Position numbers and translations under genes: made by a program. DNA of 64,000 nt, taken from assembly GCA_963730285.1 (NCBI GenBank), contig CAVSQY010000008.1, forward strand, positions 265,987 through 329,986. The letters are read 5' to 3'. The notes below the pieces were generated by a model. It saw only the letters and a list, made by a program, of their open reading frames with translations, did not search any database and was not told the origin of the DNA. Source of the stretch: an uncultured Actinomycetes bacterium (GTDB lineage: Bacteria > Actinomycetota > Acidimicrobiia > Spongiisociales > ZC4RG35). Below, piece after piece: positions 7,936 through 16,156 of this stretch; position 1 is the first letter of the stretch, and each line of letters starts with the position of its first letter.

Positions 7936-7957
7936 CGCTCTCTCCATTCGCGGCTCA

Positions 7958-7986
7958 AGAGGACCGGTCCAATGGGCCGGTCCTCT
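7958..7986. terminator. Bidirectional hairpin terminator between convergent SPFH and DAHP-synthase genes
   Basis: AGAGGACCGG-tccaatggg-CCGGTCCTCT, perfect 10-bp GC-rich stem; overlaps the aroG stop by 1 nt; no clear U-tract. Confidence 0.5.
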
Positions 7987-9008
7987 CACATGGTCAGCAA
8001 CGACCGACCCAGGGCATCGGCTATCCGACCGACCGTCTCCATCGTGGACGTGAACCCTTCGAGGGTGAGGCTCTGAGGGCCGTCGCTCAGCGCCTCGTCC
8101 GGTCTGTGGTGCACCTCTATCAGCAAGCCGTCCGCGCCCGCCGCCACGCCGGCCGCCGCCAGACTGGGCACAAGCGACCGCTTCCCGGCGGCGTGGCTCG
8201 GGTCGACGATCACCGGCAGATGTGATCTCTCCTTGAGCACCGGGACTGCACTGATGTCGAGGGTGCCACGGGTGGCCGTCTCGAAGGAGCGAATCCCGCG
8301 CTCACACAGAACGACTCTCGGGTTGCCCGCCGCGACTATGTACTCGGCCGCCAGGAGCATCTCTTCGATGGTCGACATCAGGCCTCGCTTCAAGAGGACC
8401 GGTTGTGGTTGCTCCCCTACTGCGGAAAGGAGGCGGAAATTCTGCATGTTCCTGCTTCCCACCTGGAGCATGTCCACGTGTTTGTTCATCAAGGGTATGT
8501 CCTCGGGGGCAACGACCTCGGAGACCACTCCCAACCCGGTCTCTTCCCGAGCCATGGCCAGGAGCTCGAGACCCTCCTCGCCCAATCCCTGGAAGCTGTA
8601 GGGAGAGGTCCGTGGCTTGAAGGCTCCGCCTCGCAGCAAGACGGCTCCCTCCTTGCTGACGTGGCGAGCGATCGTGAGAAGCTGATCCTCTGACTCGACG
8701 GAGCAGGGACCGGCGATCACCGCCACGCCTGTACCACCGATGGTGACAGAGCCGACCCTCACCGTGCTGGGATGGGTCCGAGCCTCTCGGGCCACGAACG
8801 GGTAGCGCGGCGCATCGAGACTGACCGACTCGACACCCGGCAAAGCACGAATCACCTCGGCGATCCCGGGCTCAGGATCACCGATGATGCTCACCAGGGT
8901 GGTCGCACCCGCTTCACCGACATGGGCCCGGAGGCCGTGGGCCTCAATGAATCTGAGAATGGCCGCTTTCTCGGCCAGGGTGCACTGACCCGAGAGCGTG
9001 GCGATCAC
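7986..9008 (-). CDS. aroG: 3-deoxy-7-phosphoheptulonate (DAHP) synthase, type Ibeta, with N-terminal ferredoxin-like/ACT regulatory domain
   Basis: C-terminal (beta/alpha)8 KDO8PS-like core (GPCSVES, LRGGAFKPRTSPYSFQGLG, KRG, VDPSHA) after a ~75-aa regulatory domain; GTG start overlaps the trpA stop (GTGA). Confidence 0.85.
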   Translation of the reverse strand: MIATLSGQCTLAEKAAILRFIEAHGLRAHVGEAGATTLVSIIGDPEPGIAEVIRALPGVESVSLDAPRYPFVAREARTHPSTVRVGSVTIGGTGVAVIAGPCSVESEDQLLTIARHVSKEGAVLLRGGAFKPRTSPYSFQGLGEEGLELLAMAREETGLGVVSEVVAPEDIPLMNKHVDMLQVGSRNMQNFRLLSAVGEQPQPVLLKRGLMSTIEEMLLAAEYIVAAGNPRVVLCERGIRSFETATRGTLDISAVPVLKERSHLPVIVDPSHAAGKRSLVPSLAAAGVAAGADGLLIEVHHRPDEALSDGPQSLTLEGFTSTMETVGRIADALGRSLLTM

Positions 9009-9775
9009 GTTTTCAACTCTTCAACGAAACGCACGGGGTCGTCTCCAGCGGCAAGCACCTCGACGAGGGCGCTTCCCACGATGACACCGTCGCAGTGGGG
9101 TGCCAGGGATCGAACCTGCTCGCGGGTTCTCACACCGAACCCGGCCAGCACCGGGGCCCGGGACTCGGCGCGCACGTTCTCCAGGTAGGCAGCCACCGTA
9201 TCACCGGTCCCCACGCTACCGCCGGTGGTGCCGGTCATGGTCACCGCGTAAGTAAATCCCCGGGAAGCCTTTCCGAGGTTGCGCAAACGTTGCGGATCGG
9301 TGACCGGGCTCACCAATTGAACCAGTCCGATGCCCACCTCGGCGGCAGCGGAGGACAACTCATCGGACTCTTCGAGGGGTAGGTCGGGAACCACCAGGGC
9401 GGCGACCCCGGCCGCGGCCAGTCTGGGAAGGAGCCTCGAATAGCCGTAGGCGAGCAAAGGGTTGAGGTAACTCATGATCACCAACTCGGCAGCCAACGGT
9501 CCGGCGGATTCGATCTCGGCCAGGATCGAGTCCAGCGACGCACCCTGCTCCAGGGCGACTCGGCTCGACTCTTGGATAGTGGCACCGTCCGCCATCGGGT
9601 CAGAGAACGGGATGCCCACCTCGATCGCCGCAGAATCATGGGCAAGGGCCCCAAGGGCCTCCCCGAATCGGCCCATGGTCGGGAAGCCGCCGGTGAGATA
9701 GGGCACCACCATCCCCGACCCGTCCCGCAAACGCTCTTCCAAGGCGTCGGCCCGAGAGAAAGCGAGTGAGCTCAT
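9005..9775 (-). CDS. trpA: Tryptophan synthase alpha subunit
   Basis: MSSLAFSRADALEERLRDGSGMVVPYLTGGFP... TrpA fold; start ATG overlaps the trpB stop (ATGA); the longer track ORF is read-through in the trpB region. Confidence 0.9.
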   Translation of the reverse strand: MSSLAFSRADALEERLRDGSGMVVPYLTGGFPTMGRFGEALGALAHDSAAIEVGIPFSDPMADGATIQESSRVALEQGASLDSILAEIESAGPLAAELVIMSYLNPLLAYGYSRLLPRLAAAGVAALVVPDLPLEESDELSSAAAEVGIGLVQLVSPVTDPQRLRNLGKASRGFTYAVTMTGTTGGSVGTGDTVAAYLENVRAESRAPVLAGFGVRTREQVRSLAPHCDGVIVGSALVEVLAAGDDPVRFVEELKT

Positions 9776-10950
9776 CTGGCCAGGTCCCGCAGGATATCGA
9801 TGTCTTTGTCGCCACGACCCGACAGACCCACCAACACCGTCGACCCGGGGTTCTTCTCCAACCAACGGCGCGCTCCGACCAAAGCATGACTCGACTCGAG
9901 AGCGGGCAAGATCCCCTCGAGACGGCCCAGGTCGTACAGGGCGGAGAGTGCCTCGTCGTCAGTAGCGCTCTCATACACCGCTCTACCCGACTCGGCCAGC
10001 CAAGAGTGCTCCGGTCCGACTCCGGGATAGTCCAAACCGGCCGAGACCGAATGTGTCTCCTGGACCTGACCGTCCAAGTCCTGGAGGAGATATGAGTAGC
10101 TCCCGTGGAGCACCCCAGGGCTGCCCCGTCCGATGGTCGCCGCGTTCTCCCCCAACTTCATCGACTTCCCACCGGCCTCGATCCCCACGAGAGCGACCGG
10201 GTCGTCGAGCAGGGGGTGGAAGAGACCTATGGCGTTCGACCCGCCACCGACACAGGCGATGGCCACATCAGGCAGTCGCCCCGCCGCCTCGATGATCTGA
10301 GAGCGCGCTTCTCTCCCGATGACCGACTGGAGCTGGCGCACCAGCCACGGGTAGGGGTGAGGCCCGACGGCGGACCCGAGCAGGTAGTAGGTGGTCTCGG
10401 GCCTGGCCACCCAGTCGCGCATCGCCTCGTTGATGGCGGCGCGGAGAGTGGCGTCCCCGGTCGAGACGGGCTCGACCTTTGCGCCTAGAAGCCGCATCCG
10501 CTCGACATTCGGCGCTTGGCGCTCGATGTCCACCGTCCCCATGTAGACGGTGCAATCCAGGCCGACTCGTGCGCAGGCCGCCGCGGAAGCCACACCGTGT
10601 TGGCCGGCACCGGTCTCGGCAATGACACGCTCTGCTCCCATCTCGTTGGCCAACATGGCCTGACCGACTGCGTTGTTGATCTTGTGAGCCCCCGTGTGGG
10701 CCAGGTCCTCGCGTTTCAGCCAGATGTCGCCTCCCCATTCCCGGCTCAGGCGAACGGCATGGGTGAGGGCGGTGGGCCGGCCCACCCAAGTGGCGAGCTC
10801 GGCCTCGAACCGCTCGATGAATCCCGGATCGGCCATGAGTCTCGTCGCCGCCTCATCGAGCCTCTCCAGTGCGGGCACGAGAATCTCGGGGGCGTAACGG
10901 CCCCCGAACTCCCCGTATCGGCCCCTCGAGTCGGGGAGGGTCGTAGTCAT
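9772..10950 (-). CDS. trpB: Tryptophan synthase beta subunit
   Basis: PLP-dependent TrpB motifs (GRPTAL, LKREDLAHTGAHKINN, GGGSNAIG); ATGA overlaps on both sides. Confidence 0.95.
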   Translation of the reverse strand: MTTTLPDSRGRYGEFGGRYAPEILVPALERLDEAATRLMADPGFIERFEAELATWVGRPTALTHAVRLSREWGGDIWLKREDLAHTGAHKINNAVGQAMLANEMGAERVIAETGAGQHGVASAAACARVGLDCTVYMGTVDIERQAPNVERMRLLGAKVEPVSTGDATLRAAINEAMRDWVARPETTYYLLGSAVGPHPYPWLVRQLQSVIGREARSQIIEAAGRLPDVAIACVGGGSNAIGLFHPLLDDPVALVGIEAGGKSMKLGENAATIGRGSPGVLHGSYSYLLQDLDGQVQETHSVSAGLDYPGVGPEHSWLAESGRAVYESATDDEALSALYDLGRLEGILPALESSHALVGARRWLEKNPGSTVLVGLSGRGDKDIDILRDLAR

Positions 10951-11615
10951 CGCGGGTTCCTTTCGAGTAGGGAAGACGCTTCGCCGGCCGGGCCTCTTTC
11001 ACCGGCCAGGTGGCCGACAGACCGAGCCGCATCGACAAATGTGCGCATCAACGCAGGGTCCTTCTCACCAGGGGCTCGCTCAATGCCGCTGCTGACATCG
11101 ACGCCGTAGGGACCGATCAGTCGCACCGCCTGAGCCACGTTGCCAGAATCGAGCCCGCCGGCCACGATCATCCGATCTCGCCCGGGGAGCGCGGCCAGCT
11201 GCCCCCAGTCCGAGCGCTCGCCGGTGCCGCCGCGCGCCGCCCTGTCGACCAAGGCCAGATGTCTGCCCGACCCAGCCAGCGACGCGCCGAATTCGTCGGC
11301 TAGTCCGGGGCCGGCCACGGCCACGGGGAGACGCGAGGCGACCGGCACGCCCTCGAGATAGGACAACTCTGCCTGCAGCAAATCAGGGACAACGGTGTCC
11401 ATGGTCTCGAAGAGCAGACGCCGACCTGGTTTGTGGAAGACCGCCACCCCCAGCACCTCATCAGGCAGCATGCGGATCAGGCGACTCGCGGTCGCGATAG
11501 ACACCTGCCGTGGAGAGTCGGTCATCACAAACCCCACCGCATCGGCACCGGCATCGATGGCGGCCACGACGTCCTCTTCCGAACGCAGACCGCACAACTT
11601 GACGAAAAGACTCAT
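10947..11615 (-). CDS. trpF: Phosphoribosylanthranilate isomerase
   Basis: MSLFVKLCGLRSEEDVVAAIDAGADAVGFV... TIM-barrel TrpF; internal ATG chosen because it overlaps the trpC stop (ATGA); the upstream part of the track ORF is an Arg/Gly-rich artefact frame. Confidence 0.85.
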   Translation of the reverse strand: MSLFVKLCGLRSEEDVVAAIDAGADAVGFVMTDSPRQVSIATASRLIRMLPDEVLGVAVFHKPGRRLLFETMDTVVPDLLQAELSYLEGVPVASRLPVAVAGPGLADEFGASLAGSGRHLALVDRAARGGTGERSDWGQLAALPGRDRMIVAGGLDSGNVAQAVRLIGPYGVDVSSGIERAPGEKDPALMRTFVDAARSVGHLAGERGPAGEASSLLERNPR

Positions 11616-12424
11616 GGGAACCTCACACCGGCTGCTGATCTCGCCTGACGAAGCATGTCGGAAACCATCCGGGCTGGATCGACGCTCCTCATCAGGGTGG
11701 TCCCGACCAGGGCCGCCCGATATCCCAATTCGGCAGCCCAGGCCGCATCCTCCGGGCCACCGATCGAAGACTCCGCCACGCCCGCCATTCCCTCGGGAAC
11801 CAGGGCGGCGAGCTCGCCCAATCGCTCGCGGGCGACGTCGAGTGTCTCCAAATCGCGGCAATTGACGCCGACCAGGACATTGGCATGATCGACGGCGACC
11901 TTGCCGATCACATCCAGGTCGGTGGCGTCAAATGCCTCGAGCAGGGTGAACATCTCGGTCTCGGCGGCCGCAGCCAGCATCTCGTCCAGGCCGGGTGCGC
12001 CCAGCATCCTGGCGATGAGGAGGACTCCGTCGGCCCCGGCAACTCTCGCCTGATAGACCTGATAGGGGTCTACCAGGAAGTCCTTGGCCAGGAGAGGGAT
12101 GTCGACCAGGGCTCGAGCCTCGGTGAGACTCGCCAAAGACCCGGCGAACTCGGTTGGCTCCGTGAGGATGGAGATCATCCCCGCTCCACCGGTCTGATAC
12201 GCGGTGACCACTTCTGCCAGGTCACGGGACGGAAGAACACCGACGGCGGGCGAGCGGGGCTTCAATTCGGCGATCAGGTCGAATACCTCCCCAAATCGCC
12301 CGATCGAGCGAGGTGGAGGAGCCGAGGCCGACTGCTCGCGAACCTGTGGGAGGGGGACCTCTCTCCTCGCCTCGTCGGCCCGCTGCCGGGACGACCGACC
12401 CATCTCGGTCAAAAAACCTCTCAT
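11612..12424 (-). CDS. trpC: Indole-3-glycerol phosphate synthase
   Basis: IGPS motifs (ELKPRSP, ISILTEPTEF, LLAKDF, GVNCRDL); ATGA overlap with trpD. Confidence 0.92.
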   Translation of the reverse strand: MRGFLTEMGRSSRQRADEARREVPLPQVREQSASAPPPRSIGRFGEVFDLIAELKPRSPAVGVLPSRDLAEVVTAYQTGGAGMISILTEPTEFAGSLASLTEARALVDIPLLAKDFLVDPYQVYQARVAGADGVLLIARMLGAPGLDEMLAAAAETEMFTLLEAFDATDLDVIGKVAVDHANVLVGVNCRDLETLDVARERLGELAALVPEGMAGVAESSIGGPEDAAWAAELGYRAALVGTTLMRSVDPARMVSDMLRQARSAAGVRFP

Positions 12425-13440
12425 CGGGGCCTCTCACCGGCGCCAAAGTCGGAAAGGCGACCTACGAGGTCATGCGCCTTGCCGGAGTCGATGGCATCGA
12501 TTGCCATCTCTACACCCGACGCGGCGTCCTCGGCTCGACCGGTGACCTCCAGCGCCAGAGAGGCGCCGAGGACCAGTGAATCACGGTGTGGGCCTTGCTC
12601 TCCCTCGAACACCTCGCGAAGCCGGCGGGCATTGTGTGCAGGGTCGGCCCCTTCAAGGTCCCCCGGCTCGCAACGTGGCATGCCCAGGTCCTGCGGTTCC
12701 CGGATGGTTCGCTCCACATTCCCGGAGGTGACGTCAAAGAGCAAGAACTCACCGATCGGTGTGGGCTCGTCCCATCCAGCCGAGCCATGGAGGACAAAGG
12801 CGCGCTCGATGTCTAGCCCGGCGAGTGCTCCCGCCATCAGCTCGGCCGCCGACGGGTCGAACGCCCCGATCACCAAGTAGCGCGGTCCGGCGGGGTTGGT
12901 GAGAGGCCCCAAGATGTTGAAGATCGTCCGGACACCAAGCGCCCTGCGGACTGGGCCTACGGCTGCCATAGCCGGGTGATAGTGGGGCGCGAACAGGAAG
13001 GTGAAGCCGGTCGCTCGGAAGAGGCGACGGGCCTGATCCTCGTCGAGCGGCATGGGAAGCCCGAGCTGCTCGAGAACGTCGGCACTTCCACTGTGACTCG
13101 TCATGGAGCGGTTGCCGTGCTTGACCACCGGGATGCCTGCGGCCGCGGCGAGCAGGGCAGAGCCTGTCGACAGGTTGAGGCTGCCCGAGCCGTCGCCGCC
13201 GGTGCCGACCACATCCACCGCACCGGTGACGTCCAACTCGGGATCCGTCGAGAGACCGCCCATCACCCGGGCGAACCCCTGCACCTCGTCCGGAGTCTCC
13301 CCTTTTGCCCGCAGGGCGGCCAGCAGGGCTCCCGCGTTGATCGGGTCGACCTCACCACCGGTGAGCTGGCGCAACAGATCCTCGGCCTCGGCCACGGTGA
13401 GATCGCCCCCGTTCAGCAGACGGTCGAGGACCTCCCTCAT
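12421..13440 (-). CDS. trpD: Anthranilate phosphoribosyltransferase
   Basis: GTGGDGSGSLN, KHGNRSMTSHSGSADVLE motifs; ATGA overlaps. Confidence 0.93.
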   Translation of the reverse strand: MREVLDRLLNGGDLTVAEAEDLLRQLTGGEVDPINAGALLAALRAKGETPDEVQGFARVMGGLSTDPELDVTGAVDVVGTGGDGSGSLNLSTGSALLAAAAGIPVVKHGNRSMTSHSGSADVLEQLGLPMPLDEDQARRLFRATGFTFLFAPHYHPAMAAVGPVRRALGVRTIFNILGPLTNPAGPRYLVIGAFDPSAAELMAGALAGLDIERAFVLHGSAGWDEPTPIGEFLLFDVTSGNVERTIREPQDLGMPRCEPGDLEGADPAHNARRLREVFEGEQGPHRDSLVLGASLALEVTGRAEDAASGVEMAIDAIDSGKAHDLVGRLSDFGAGERPR

Positions 13441-14018
13441 CGTGGCACTCCGAGATCGAGGAAATTGCGAAGCAAGAGGTCGCCGTGTGGTGTCAGGACG
13501 CTCTCGGGATGGAACTGGACCCCTTCGACGGGGAGCTCCCGATGCCTGACCCCCATGATGACACCGTCGGATGTGAATGCGGTCACCACCAACTCGGAGG
13601 GAAGGTCCTCTTCCTGGACGGCGAGGGAATGATATCTCCCCGCTTCGAAGGGGCTGGGAAGACCGGCGTAGATCGTGGCCGAGTCGTGATATACGGGTGA
13701 GGACTTCCCATGCCTCAGCTCCTCGGCATGATCGACCTTCCCGCCCAGGGCGGCCGCTATCGCCTGATGCCCGAGACAGACGCCCAGGATGGGAAGCTGC
13801 TCGAGCATGCCGGTGATCAGCTTGATCGATTCCCCGGCCGCCTCGGGGCGCCCCGGACCTGGGGAGATCACCAGGTGGGTGGGCTCCATATCTTGGGCCT
13901 CATCGAGACTGATGTGATCGTTGGTGCGAACGATGACCTCGGCACCCAGGATGCGGAGGGCCTGGACGACGTTGTAGGTGAAAGAGTCGTAATTGTCCAC
14001 GAGAAGGACCCGGCTCAT
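13437..14018 (-). CDS. trpG: Anthranilate synthase component II (glutamine amidotransferase)
   Basis: MSRVLLVDNYDSFTYNVVQ..., catalytic GVCLGHQ and HPES motifs; internal ATG overlaps the trpE stop (ATGA). Confidence 0.9.
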   Translation of the reverse strand: MSRVLLVDNYDSFTYNVVQALRILGAEVIVRTNDHISLDEAQDMEPTHLVISPGPGRPEAAGESIKLITGMLEQLPILGVCLGHQAIAAALGGKVDHAEELRHGKSSPVYHDSATIYAGLPSPFEAGRYHSLAVQEEDLPSELVVTAFTSDGVIMGVRHRELPVEGVQFHPESVLTPHGDLLLRNFLDLGVPR

Positions 14019-15391
14019 AGCCCGGCCGCCGCGGTGCTCAGGGCGCCACGCATGGCACCGGACTTGGAAAGCACTTCTTCCCACTCTGAGATAGGCACGC
14101 TGTCGGCCACTATGCCCGCTCCCGCCTGGAAGGAGTAGCGGCCCTCGGAGACGACGATGGTCCTGATGGCGATCGCCTGATCCATGGTGCCACCGTGACC
14201 GAAGTACCCGACCGTCCCCGCGTAGAGGCCGCGATCGACCGGCTCGAGCTCCTTCAATATCTCCAAAGCCCGGATCTTGGGTGCGCCCACGACGGTGCCG
14301 GCCGGGAAGGCGGCCGCAAACAGGTCGAAAGCATCAGCACCCGCTTCGAGGATTCCGCCGACACCACTCACCAGGTGGATGACATGGCTGTAGCGCTCGA
14401 TGGCTCGATAAGGATCGACCTTGATCGACCCGGGCACGGCCACCCTCCCCAAGTCGTTACGGGCCAGATCCACGAGCATCACGTGTTCCGCGGCTTCCTT
14501 GGCGTCGCCGAGCAGCTCGGCCTCCGCCCTCCTGTCACGATCTTCCTCGTTGGCCCTGGGCCTCGTCCCTGCGATGGGCCGAAGCTCGGCAGCGGTTCCG
14601 CGAAGCCTCACCAGTGCTTCCGGCGAGGAGCCGATCACCTTTCTGGACCCGAGATCACAGAAGTACATGTAGGGAGAGGGGTTGAGCAGCCGAAGGCCCC
14701 GGTAGACCGTGAACGGGTCGAGATCGGTCTCGCCGGTGAAGCGGACAGAGGGGACTATCTGGTACACGTCGCCTTCTCCGATGTGATACTTGGCCTTCTC
14801 CACCGCGGCCACGTATTCCCCTTTGGACAAGGAGGCGACCGGGTCACTGAAGCTCCCGGAGGACATGCCTCCGGACCGGCCGCTTGACAGAAGAGCCATC
14901 ACCTGCCGGCGGAGCTCGGAATGCTCGGAGTCTGTCCCGTCGTGGAGCAGCGCCGCCCTTCGACTCAGGTGATCGAACACGATCACACTCGAAGGCCCGT
15001 ACAACTCGATCTCCGGCGTGGGGCTCGCGGCGGCCGTCCGACCTGCCAGCCGGGCCGCGACCCCAAATCCGATCGCCCCCACCAAGCCCCCGTGGAATGG
15101 GATCACACTCGCCGCCGGGCCCGGCCTCGGCGCCAGAGCGAGAGTCTTGCGCAGTCCATCCATCAACCCGTCGATGGTTCCGTCCGTCTCGATCGTTGTG
15201 TTTCCGGCCGAGATCGACACGCCATCGCTGGCCACCTCGAGCCCATCGCCAAAGCCAATGAAGGAATACCGGCCGACCTGGTCGCCGTGCTCGACACTCT
15301 CGAGGAGGAAACGAGGGCCGAGAGGGCCGAGTTTGAGGTACACCGATGTCGGCGTGTCCAGGTCGGCCGGAATGTCGAATATGTCGTTCAT
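14015..15391 (-). CDS. trpE: Anthranilate synthase component I
   Basis: 458-aa chorismate-binding enzyme (LLESVEHGDQVGRYSFIGF..., GAGIVADSVP, GYFGHGG); first gene after the leader region. Confidence 0.93.
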   Translation of the reverse strand: MNDIFDIPADLDTPTSVYLKLGPLGPRFLLESVEHGDQVGRYSFIGFGDGLEVASDGVSISAGNTTIETDGTIDGLMDGLRKTLALAPRPGPAASVIPFHGGLVGAIGFGVAARLAGRTAAASPTPEIELYGPSSVIVFDHLSRRAALLHDGTDSEHSELRRQVMALLSSGRSGGMSSGSFSDPVASLSKGEYVAAVEKAKYHIGEGDVYQIVPSVRFTGETDLDPFTVYRGLRLLNPSPYMYFCDLGSRKVIGSSPEALVRLRGTAAELRPIAGTRPRANEEDRDRRAEAELLGDAKEAAEHVMLVDLARNDLGRVAVPGSIKVDPYRAIERYSHVIHLVSGVGGILEAGADAFDLFAAAFPAGTVVGAPKIRALEILKELEPVDRGLYAGTVGYFGHGGTMDQAIAIRTIVVSEGRYSFQAGAGIVADSVPISEWEEVLSKSGAMRGALSTAAAGL

Positions 15392-15427
15392 GGTCTTCCT
15401 CTATGACTCCGGAGACTGGATGGCATG

Positions 15428-15460
15428 AAAAAACCCATCTGCCGTCTCCGGAGATGGGTC
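15428..15460 (-). terminator. trp attenuator terminator hairpin with U6 tract
   Basis: mRNA 5'-ACCCAUCU-ccggagacggc-AGAUGGGU-UUUUUU-3' (8-bp stem then six U), 36 nt upstream of the trpE ATG. Confidence 0.75.
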
Positions 15461-15483
15461 TGTGTGGATCAGAGAGTTGAGAG

Positions 15484-15564
15484 CTATCCGACCGACGCCA
15501 CCTCCGGCGCGCGCCAGGCCCACAACCAGGTGTGGACGGTCGGCATCGTGGTCGGTCGGCTCAT
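15484..15564 (-). CDS. trpL: trp leader peptide (26 aa MSRPTTMPTVHTWLWAWRAPEVASVG, or 20 aa from the second ATG at 15546)
   Basis: Short ORF with three Trp codons in a 5-codon run (TGG TTG TGG GCC TGG) between promoter and terminator; the first ATG lies at the predicted transcription start (leaderless). Confidence 0.7.
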   Translation of the reverse strand: MSRPTTMPTVHTWLWAWRAPEVASVG

Positions 15565-15573
15565 GGAGCGGGA

Positions 15574-15602
15574 ACGGTAAGCAACATCGCCTCGGGAGTC
15601 AA
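15574..15602 (-). promoter_or_regulatory. Candidate sigma-A-type promoter of the trp leader (TTGACT-17nt-TACCGT)
   Basis: -35 TTGACT at 15602-15597 and -10 TACCGT (TAnnnT) at 15579-15574 with a 17-nt spacer; predicted TSS about 2-3 nt before the leader-peptide ATG. Confidence 0.45.
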
Positions 15603-15613
15603 GACCACAACTC

Positions 15614-16156
15614 TCAGCCCCCGACACGATTCATTCCGAGAAGGACTACCTCGACCTCCTTCGGGGCGATGGGCGGATAGAAGACCATCGTGTAGAGGTC
15701 GCACCGCTCACCAGGGGCCTCGTACCAACCCGCGACCCAGGTCCCGTCGGCGTGAGGGCCCACGGCCGCCCTGGTCCCATCGATGAGTATCTCCCCCTTC
15801 TCCCCGGGCCAATCAACGGGCGGGAGGGTGCCCCGGACCAAAGCTATCGCCACGGTGCCGTCGTTCCGCCCGAAGAGGACGGCGCTCGTCCCAGGGACCG
15901 ACGTCCAGACATCCGGCTCGACCTGATCGGGGTCCAGAGCCGTCTCTCCCACTCCGGTTGGGACCACATCTAGCTGATAGGGGGCAGTGGGGCATTCCAC
16001 CGGCGGCTCTGTGGTGGTGGTGGTTCCCAACGTCGGGCCGGTGGTGGTGGCAGACACAGTGGGCTCAGGGCCATCGGCTCCGCTGCCGCATGCCGCGATC
16101 AACAGCAGAAGGGCCGCCAGTGCCCACACCGCGGGATGGGTATGACGCGGACTCAT
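15614..16156 (-). CDS. Hypothetical lipoprotein
   Basis: Signal peptide with lipobox (AVWALAALLLLIAACGSG) then a Thr-rich linker; start ATG overlaps the stop of the upstream PQQ-repeat gene (ATGA); stop abuts the trp promoter. Confidence 0.65.
   Translation of the reverse strand: MSPRHTHPAVWALAALLLLIAACGSGADGPEPTVSATTTGPTLGTTTTTEPPVECPTAPYQLDVVPTGVGETALDPDQVEPDVWTSVPGTSAVLFGRNDGTVAIALVRGTLPPVDWPGEKGEILIDGTRAAVGPHADGTWVAGWYEAPGERCDLYTMVFYPPIAPKEVEVVLLGMNRVGG

Follow-up and report, generated by a model that had tools for sequence, protein, structure and literature searches.

A predicted leader-peptide attenuator with leaderless-type promoter geometry upstream of the tryptophan operon in an uncultured Acidimicrobiia lineage

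The 222-base spacer between a lipoprotein-type gene and trpE on contig CAVSQY010000008.1 (assembly GCA_963730285.1, an uncultured Actinomycetes bacterium placed in the Acidimicrobiia) very probably carries a ribosome-mediated, leader-peptide transcription attenuator that controls the tryptophan (trp) operon. The spacer lies on the minus strand of the 64,000-nucleotide (nt) stretch that we analysed, called the window here and used for all coordinates, and it runs from the stop codon of the upstream open reading frame (ORF; TGA, 15616-15614) to the trpE ATG at 15391. The assignment is supported by the sequence elements themselves, by the mutual exclusivity of their pairings, by thermodynamic plausibility, and by conservation and covariation among relatives. 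Each coordinate and sequence that an earlier note gave for these elements proved right. The parts of the element are as follows, each with its basis in brackets.

15597-15602, minus strand: -35 hexamer TTGACT (sequence reading; relatives)
15574-15579, minus strand: -10 hexamer TACCGT, of the actinobacterial TAnnnT type (sequence reading; relatives)
15484-15564, minus strand: putative leader ORF, trpL-like, 26 codons plus TAG, MSRPTTMPTVHTWLWAWRAPEVASVG (sequence reading; 36-sequence comparison)
15548-15559, minus strand: segment 1, CCGACCGACCAC, 5' strand of the predicted anti-antiterminator, codons 2-6 (pairs with 15501-15488 in the minimum-free-energy (MFE) fold of the window)
15526-15534, minus strand: alternative segment 1, CACACCUGG, which takes in the first Trp codon; possible partner of CCGGAGGUG (RNAalifold consensus hairpin)
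15514-15528, minus strand: Trp codons, UGG-UUG-UGG-GCC-UGG, at codons 13, 15 and 17 (sequence reading)
15488-15507, minus strand: segment 2, composed of CCGGAGGUGG (15507-15498) and GCGUCGGUCGG (15498-15488) (pairing with segment 3)
15467-15476, minus strand: conserved CUCUCUGAUC, whose UCUGAUC part (15473-15467) pairs with GGUCGGA (15493-15487) (alignment; folds)
15448-15457, minus strand: segment 3, CCAUCUCCGG (5' arm of the terminator; pairs with CCGGAGGUGG)
15433-15459, minus strand: terminator hairpin, ACCCAUCUCCG, a GAGA loop and CGG-C-AGAUGGGU (folding; alignment; shuffles)
15428-15433, minus strand: U6 tract (sequence reading)

Relatives were gathered by a TrpE-based scan with one genome per species, which gave 36 loci with TrpE 65-91% identical; one of them (L031) ends at a contig end with no upstream DNA and was left out, leaving 35 relatives and, with the window, an alignment of 36 sequences. 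These relatives are metagenome-assembled genomes (MAGs), mostly titled Acidimicrobiia or Actinomycetota, with some near-identical ones titled Acidobacteriota. On this last point, loci L001, L003, L005, L009, L010, L019, L056, L058 and L062, titled 'uncultured Acidobacteriota bacterium', show 80-91% TrpE identity and near-identical leaders when set against L002, L004 and others titled 'Acidimicrobiia bacterium', and one of the two labels is probably an error. All 35 relatives keep the short W-rich ORF, the terminator and the antiterminator, and this is the conservation on which an earlier note on this DNA had let its attenuator proposal depend.

The promoter read by the earlier note, TTGACT and TACCGT separated by 17 nt, is found on the minus strand at the positions given above and is followed after 9 nt by the leader ATG at 15564. 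Its geometry is kept in 34 of the 35 relatives as TTGAC(T/G)-17-TA(C/G)(C/G)GT with 8-10 nt (mostly 9) to the leader ATG. TAnnnT is the actinobacterial -10 consensus, and in Streptomyces lividans the transcription start lies 4-9 nt (mean 6.3) beyond the -10 hexamer, with purines at 97% of leaderless starts (PMC8079986); the 9-nt spacing here sits at the upper edge of that Streptomyces range. The 9 nt contain no Shine-Dalgarno-like run. From this spacing a predicted 5' end at the A of the AUG or at G15569, giving an untranslated leader of 0-5 nt, is plausible. A start exactly at the ATG, as the earlier note had it, is permitted, and so is one up to about 5 nt upstream. An E. coli-style promoter and terminator scan of the region did not flag this promoter, because TACCGT agrees with TATAAT at only 3/6 positions; nor did it flag the terminator hairpin at 15459-15433, in our reading because the bulged stem leaves an 11-nt loop that exceeds the scan's 8-nt limit. 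The scan's single 'terminator-like' match, at 15605-15589, overlaps the -35 hexamer, was at chance level (0.6 expected) and was disregarded. Promoter and leader are kept in relatives even where the upstream gene differs, which indicates that they belong to trpE rather than to that gene.

The predicted leader ORF opens at ATG 15564, closes at TAG 15486-15484 and encodes a 26-amino-acid peptide (20 amino acids if the second ATG is used) with three Trp codons within five, at 15528-26, 15522-20 and 15516-14, exactly as had been described from the window alone. The distance from the leader ATG to the trpE ATG is 173 nt in the window and 167-180 nt in relatives. A search of related genomes for this ORF, which the earlier note had proposed as a check, returned a 26-codon W-rich ORF in all 35 relatives with Trp at positions 13-15 and 17, so that the length is 26 codons in 36/36 sequences, with Trp at codon 13 in 35/36, at codon 14 in 33/36, and at codons 15 and 17 in 36/36 each. 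The consensus peptide of the main group begins MSR, passes through a variable stretch and ends in (H/G)TWWWAWRAPEVASVG, and that of a deeper branch is MSGYHLSQSTHTWWWGWDAPEVASSG. The amino-acid sequence of codons 4-11 varies freely among relatives, and the distance from the AUG to the U-tract stays within 133-140 nt in all sequences. Taken together, the fixed 26 codons, the fixed position of the first Trp codon and the near-constant distance to the U-tract point to a geometric constraint, possibly one of spacing for a second ribosome.

Downstream of the leader ORF, the pairing of segments 3 and 4 into a terminator followed by UUUUUU 36 nt before trpE holds up as the earlier note had drawn it. 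The 11-bp stem folds at -19.2 kcal/mol compared with -6.2 +/- 2.3 kcal/mol for shuffled sequence, with none of 2000 shuffles as good (the chance tests on the window alone used mononucleotide shuffles, 2000 per test). Across the 36-sequence alignment 98.2% of its cells are paired, against 37-55% in slid controls, and nine U-A to C-G cells, in nine sequences, are compensatory. The competing antiterminator, proposed as a 10-bp helix including one G-U between CCGGAGGUGG and CCAUCUCCGG, is likewise present where it had been placed, and segment 3 finds its best upstream partner at -19.2 kcal/mol versus -11.1 +/- 2.2 kcal/mol in shuffles of the window (3/2000 as good). The antiterminator is paired in 97.2% of alignment cells, compared with 34-58% in slid controls. 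The sequence TGGNNNTGGNNNTGG occurs 7 times in the window against 0.9 expected, a count inflated by coding sequence and not used as evidence.

Nested within the antiterminator helix, an inner hairpin between GGUCGGA and UCUGAUC appears both in the 'stalled' consensus fold and in the fold of nt 58-117 of the window leader. Its 3' side belongs to CUCUCUGAUC, which lies between the leader stop codon and the terminator and is invariant in the 28 group-1 sequences, and the hairpin shows no covariation. In the deeper branch (L023-L029, L059) the place of CUCUCUGAUC is taken by CACACCAC, a complement of the UGGUGGUG Trp codons. Through the GGUCGGA/UCUGAUC pairing the end of the ORF would change partners between the off state and the on state, which can explain the strong conservation of that stretch.

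The anti-antiterminator required more interpretation. The earlier note had paired segment 1 with a segment 2 written as GUGGCGUCGGUCGG (15501-15488), which overlaps the antiterminator strand CCGGAGGUGG at 15507-15498. That exact register is paired in 75.7% of alignment cells, against 23-48% in slid controls, with weak covariation. A shifted register (CCGAAG:CUUCGG and CACCUC:GAGGUG) is paired in 79.4% of cells, against 34-54% in slid controls, and contains 16 compensatory cells compared with 6.2 +/- 1.8 in shuffled alignments, a number that none of 500 shuffles reached; pair 7:72 switches between C-G and G-C, and pair 10:69 occurs as A-U, U-A or C-G. Two such shifted registers performed similarly and revealed compensatory pairs, and when each ORF RNA is folded singly, 34 of 36 have the GAGGUGG core paired mainly with nt 1-30. 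Judged from these alignments, codons 2-7 probably pair at long range with codons 20-25 in a generalized form of the helix. What stands of the original 1:2 claim is therefore this generalized helix with its compensatory changes, but not the exact register, given its 75.7% pairing and chance-level score in the window alone. RNAalifold recovers the terminator from the alignment and, as its second feature, proposes a hairpin closer to the Trp codons, in which CACCUGGUGG (codons 11-15) pairs with CGCGCC..GGAGGUG; it is paired in 98.2% of cells, against 28-69% in slid controls, with no covariation among the 36 sequences, and the corresponding Trp-proximal strand, there CGCCCACACCUGG, is the best partner of segment 2 in Gemmatimonadota. 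Segment 2 may thus have two possible 5' partners, codons 2-7 or the Trp-proximal CACACCUGG.

Folding energies are compatible with a switch among these pairings. The 179-nt leader folds with a z-score of -2.7, and the segment 2 region forms duplexes of -25.7 kcal/mol with nt 1-27, -16.5 kcal/mol with the Trp region and -25.0 kcal/mol with the segment 3 region. When the RNA extends only from nt 58 to the end of segment 3 (nt 117) the antiterminator is the MFE structure at -28.0 kcal/mol. From nt 52 to the U-tract the terminator fold reaches -35.9 kcal/mol versus -31.6 kcal/mol for the forced antiterminator, and the gap of only about 4 kcal/mol fits a kinetic switch. Placing a ribosome at the stop codon leaves the terminator as the only fold of the rest of the RNA. 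Constrained folding, which the earlier note had suggested as a check, therefore recovers the antiterminator in truncated RNA but loses it once pairing across the ribosome is allowed.

In the mechanism that we propose, transcription from TTGACT-17-TACCGT would begin at or within a few nt of AUG 15564, and the leader ORF would accordingly be translated as a leaderless or near-leaderless message. When charged tRNA-Trp is scarce, a ribosome would stall at UGG codons 13, 15 and 17. The stalled ribosome would hold the 5' partners of segment 2 apart from it, or a queued second ribosome would cover them, and CCGGAGGUGG would be left free to pair with CCAUCUCCGG as segment 3 emerges, stabilised by the nested GGUCGGA/UCUGAUC hairpin. 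Formation of this 2:3 helix would block the terminator and let RNA polymerase read into trpEGDCFBA and the DAHP synthase gene that follows. When Trp is plentiful, the ribosome would translate through segment 2 to the UAG at 15486-15484 and mask it, segments 3 and 4 would pair, and the 11-bp hairpin with U6 would end transcription to give an RNA of about 137 nt. If the ORF is not translated at all, its 5' part would sequester segment 2 through 1:2 pairing and termination would again result. Since the Trp codons lie in the loop of about 37 nt between segments 1 and 2, a stalled ribosome would have to open the 1:2 helix sterically or through a queued ribosome and not by covering segment 1. A ribosome footprint is about 30 nt, and a second ribosome at the 5' AUG could cover segment 1, an arrangement for which the 12 codons that always separate the AUG from the first Trp codon would leave room.

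Several observations weigh against this interpretation. Tested in the window alone, the 1:2 pairing is not above chance for so G+C-rich an RNA (241 of 2000 shuffles do as well), and clades differ in its register so that no single register fits all of them. Covariation in the antiterminator is thin (two compensatory cells, both in one sequence), and its support is mostly conservation, which coding constraints could also yield. When pairing across the ribosome is allowed, the equilibrium fold for a stall at codons 13-17 keeps the 1:2 helix together with the terminator, and the antiterminator becomes the MFE structure only if the RNA 5' of the ribosome is excluded and RNA polymerase stands just past segment 3; the switch accordingly needs steric or kinetic arguments, or a second ribosome. 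A stall at codon 17 would also place the leading edge of the ribosome on the 5' half of segment 2. U-tracts are imperfect in many relatives, for example UUCUCU, and efficient termination may need additional factors. Finally, the transcription start, translation of the ORF, stalling and Trp-dependent termination are steps that we infer from the sequence.

Among other explanations, the one that fares best keeps the leader ORF as a sensor of Trp-tRNA and replaces simple intrinsic termination with a different output, such as a need for NusG or NusA, access for Rho, or control of trpE translation. U-tracts in relatives read UUUUCU, UUUCUU or UUUUUU, and degenerate tracts such as GGGUUCUCU and GGGUUUCU are found in many of them, the window and relatives alike have a small G+C-rich palindrome directly 5' of the trpE Shine-Dalgarno sequence, and leader peptides of actinobacterial leuA and cys operons operate without canonical terminators (PMC1262725; PMC8079986). 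Against these stand the strength of the window stem (11 bp with U6), its 98% conservation with compensatory changes, and its exclusivity with a conserved antiterminator, which is the signature of control through an intrinsic terminator. We therefore consider a non-intrinsic output quite improbable.

A trans-acting protein or a directly bound ligand (a TRAP-like protein, a T-box, a Trp riboswitch, or a repressor at CUCCGGAG palindromes) would account for the two copies of CUCCGGAG, at 15453-15446 and 15414-15407, and for the unusual conservation of the peptide C-terminus and of several non-coding stretches. Rfam 15 gave no match at E <= 10 on either strand of 15200-15800, Trp_leader RF00513 and T-box included, and the sequence of the second palindrome is not conserved in relatives. 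TRAP sites in Bacillus consist of about 9-11 (G/U)AG repeats 2-3 nt apart, whereas the 217 nt of this leader region hold 8 GAG/UAG triplets, with a longest run of 2 at 2-3-nt spacing. Control of this kind would also leave the fixed in-frame Trp codons unexplained, and we give it very little weight.

The conserved C-terminus of the peptide suggests another reading, in which APEVAS(V/S)G works as a nascent-chain effector, as TnaC and SecM do, or acts in trans like peTrpL. Conservation of residues 20-26, PEVAS(V/S)G, goes together with synonymous variation at codons 20, 23, 24 and 26, whose amino acids are kept in 34-36 of 36 sequences, and trans roles of a trp leader peptide and its attenuator RNA are established in Sinorhizobium meliloti (PMC7298713, PMC6614838). 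The third positions that vary, however, coincide either with covarying helix positions (columns 69 and 72) or with mismatched or variable positions, including helix ends. In Steroidobacteraceae-type homologues the equivalent GGAGUGGGG RNA motif lies beyond the stop codon, untranslated, so that there the RNA and not the peptide is conserved, and constraints on the RNA suffice to explain the C-terminal conservation. An effector role for the peptide thus seems hardly likely. The remaining proposal, that the hairpin and U6 merely terminate the upstream lipoprotein gene while the W-rich ORF and alternative pairings are coincidences of a G+C-rich spacer, can point to the lack of any other terminator between the stop at 15614 and the hairpin and to the chance-level 1:2 score in the window, but it is effectively refuted by the comparative data, as promoter, ORF and hairpin travel with trpE despite differing upstream genes, neither the ORF length nor the Trp positions change across 36 sequences, the 2:3 complementarity, at 3/2000 shuffles, differs significantly from chance, and the element is found again 5' of trpE in other phyla but at no second place in the window.

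The attenuator reading gains breadth from those other phyla. Loci with a TrpE of 55-60% identity, which come from Steroidobacteraceae and other Gammaproteobacteria, Gemmatimonadota, Chromatiales, Phycisphaerae/Planctomycetota and a Cryosericum MAG, also have a W-rich leader ORF in front of trpE. Their leader peptides contain ..RRWWWRHS in Steroidobacteraceae and other Gammaproteobacteria and ..HTWWWYCARPEVGSVK in Gemmatimonadota; the TTGAC-17-(-10) geometry is kept with the ATG about 9-10 nt downstream; and the terminator arm, ACCCAYCUCCG, is nearly identical. The following putative attenuators, from among loci L032-L065, each combine a WWW leader ORF with a GGAG(N)(N)GGG strand.

L042, 2810-2947: trp attenuator of another phylum
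L051, 2813-2946: trp attenuator of another phylum
L036, 2820-2955: trp attenuator of another phylum
L053, 1518-1649: trp attenuator of another phylum
L044, 2839-2951: trp attenuator of another phylum

About 20 of 24 other-phylum loci have, a short way past the Trp codons, a complement of the terminator arm with a pairing energy of -13 to -20 kcal/mol (the rows for L039 and L049, whose terminators had been mis-assigned by the automated finder, were ignored). A covariance model (R1) for which the 36 Acidimicrobiia-type sequences were the sole input, searched against the window and the other-phylum loci, gave exactly one match in the 64-kb window. In other phyla it matched directly 5' of trpE at E of about 1e-6 to 0.03, with values of 1e-6 to 1e-4 in Gemmatimonadota and about 6e-4 to 2e-3 in Steroidobacteraceae-type Gammaproteobacteria, and with further matches in Chromatiales and the Cryosericum MAG. 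Fifteen distant loci, for the most part from Lachnospiraceae and other Clostridia, gave no match; W-rich ORFs are absent from them too. No Rfam family reached its gathering threshold anywhere on either strand of the window, and the element falls outside the enterobacterial Trp_leader family of Rfam. The company of an unusually similar TrpE (55-60%) suggests that operon and attenuator moved together. One could go further and propose both an uncatalogued, horizontally mobile family of trp attenuators in at least five phyla, marked by its near-invariant ACCCAYCUCCG arm and leaderless-type promoter geometry, and an additional function in the Acidimicrobiia branch, where the fixed 26 codons and APEVAS(V/S)G could reflect the geometry of two-ribosome (disome) sensing or a trans-acting RNA or peptide; we regard this combined proposal as speculative and, as a whole, unlikely.

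Comparison with characterized systems places the element within a familiar class. Like the E. coli trp attenuator (trpL; RF00513), it combines a leader ORF in which Trp codons cluster with a terminator and U-tract before trpE, and with 1:2, 2:3 and 3:4 pairings that are predicted here to exclude one another, and in both cases the operon controlled covers the whole pathway. It differs in having no Shine-Dalgarno sequence and a promoter set for a leaderless or near-leaderless ORF, in an ORF that is 26 codons long instead of 14 and runs through segment 2 instead of stopping before it, in the hairpin nested in its antiterminator, and in the DAHP synthase gene of its operon. The main segment 1 also lies 5' of the Trp codons. 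The earlier note's description of the pairings as positioned as in E. coli consequently holds for their mutual exclusivity but not for the Trp codons, which fall in the 1:2 loop and not inside segment 1.

Closer parallels come from other Actinomycetota. Classical trp attenuators with the conserved words gGCC-rGCy-GGCC have been described in Corynebacterium and Streptomyces (PMC1262725), and in S. lividans trpL1 (MFAHSTRNWWWTAHPAAH) is carried on a leaderless transcript and followed by hairpins and a U-rich stretch, forming an intrinsic terminator, 5' of trpE (PMC8079986). The element here shares with these a WWW-type peptide, a TAnnnT -10 hexamer and a G+C-rich terminator with a U-rich tail, the leaderless start having been mapped in S. 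lividans only. Its pairing words are instead GGAGGUGG / CCAUCUCC / GAGAUGGG, its peptide has a fixed 26 amino acids compared with 18, and it precedes an eight-gene operon, whereas trpE of S. lividans is monocistronic (PMC8079986); the uncultured Acidimicrobiia lineage lies outside the coverage of the Streptomyces and Corynebacterium studies. In S. meliloti the trpL RNA starts at the AUG, and both the RNA (rnTrpL) and the peptide (peTrpL) act in trans (PMC7298713, PMC6614838). That attenuator, which is leaderless, also lies 5' of trpE(G), but its peptide has 14 amino acids compared with 26 here, the sequences are unrelated, and the trans roles are demonstrated there. Mycobacteria use leaderless polycysteine upstream ORFs as attenuators (bioRxiv 10.1101/834739), so that in both settings a leaderless-type short ORF rich in codons for the end product controls, or here would control, an actinobacterial operon; the codons there are for Cys, and the element here has a canonical terminator and antiterminator, while Seliverstov et al. 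found no conserved terminator hairpin 5' of mycobacterial cys operons (PMC1262725).

The genes predicted to be under this control, and the ribosome-binding site through which read-through would reach the first of them, are given below.

7986-15391, minus strand: regulated operon trpE-trpG-trpD-trpC-trpF-trpB-trpA-DAHP synthase (Pfam assignments)
15395-15401, minus strand: Shine-Dalgarno sequence of trpE, GAGGAAG, 3 nt before ATG 15391 (sequence reading)

All seven junctions within the operon are 4-nt ATGA or GTGA overlaps, a stem formed by AGAGGACCGG...CCGGTCCTCT lies at about 7948-7983, 3' of the DAHP synthase stop codon, and the genes beyond (PadR, NfeD, SPFH) are convergent. From the overlapping junctions, the hairpin after the last stop and the convergent neighbours, the earlier note's trpE operon of eight genes is a fair description, and its composition of trpEGDCFBA plus DAHP synthase is borne out by Pfam. 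The DAHP synthase, encoded by the last gene, has an N-terminal ferredoxin-like (FXD) domain, and with this gene in the operon a Trp attenuator would gate an entry enzyme of the shikimate pathway as well. On the other side of the spacer, the upstream ORF has a lipoprotein-type signal (...LLLIAAC) and no Pfam match.

Relatives have GGAGGAG or GAAGGAG at the position of the trpE Shine-Dalgarno sequence. Directly 5' of that sequence in the window lies GUCUCCGGAG (15407-15416, minus strand), a perfect complement of CUCCGGAGAC (15444-15453) at the top of the terminator, and the two are paired in the MFE fold of the full 5' region; relatives carry other small G+C-rich palindromes at this site, for example GCCGGACCGGC. 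GUCUCCGGAG might give structure to the read-through mRNA, regulate the ribosome-binding site of trpE, or be bound by a protein. Public gene calls for contigs with identical TrpE (L081:812-967 and L082:812-967) place a 51-amino-acid ORF on the opposite strand over the leader and leave the 26-amino-acid ORF uncalled; the opposite-strand call is spurious. The window itself holds a mechanical 84-amino-acid plus-strand ORF at 15532-15786 with no Pfam match.

In summary, the mechanism class to which this element would belong is a textbook one, and understanding of attenuation itself is unchanged. What our analysis provides is a comparatively validated regulatory annotation of the trp operon for a little-studied, uncultured soil lineage without genetics (mostly titled Acidimicrobiia), extending leaderless-type leader-peptide attenuation within Actinomycetota beyond Corynebacterium and Streptomyces. 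Modest added interest lies in the position of the regulatory codons between segments 1 and 2 and in the uncatalogued family that reaches across phyla. The latter is probably the more useful observation, since a cross-phylum attenuator absent from Rfam would offer a ready seed for a new RNA family and, if true, would show an operon passing between phyla in company with its cis-regulator.

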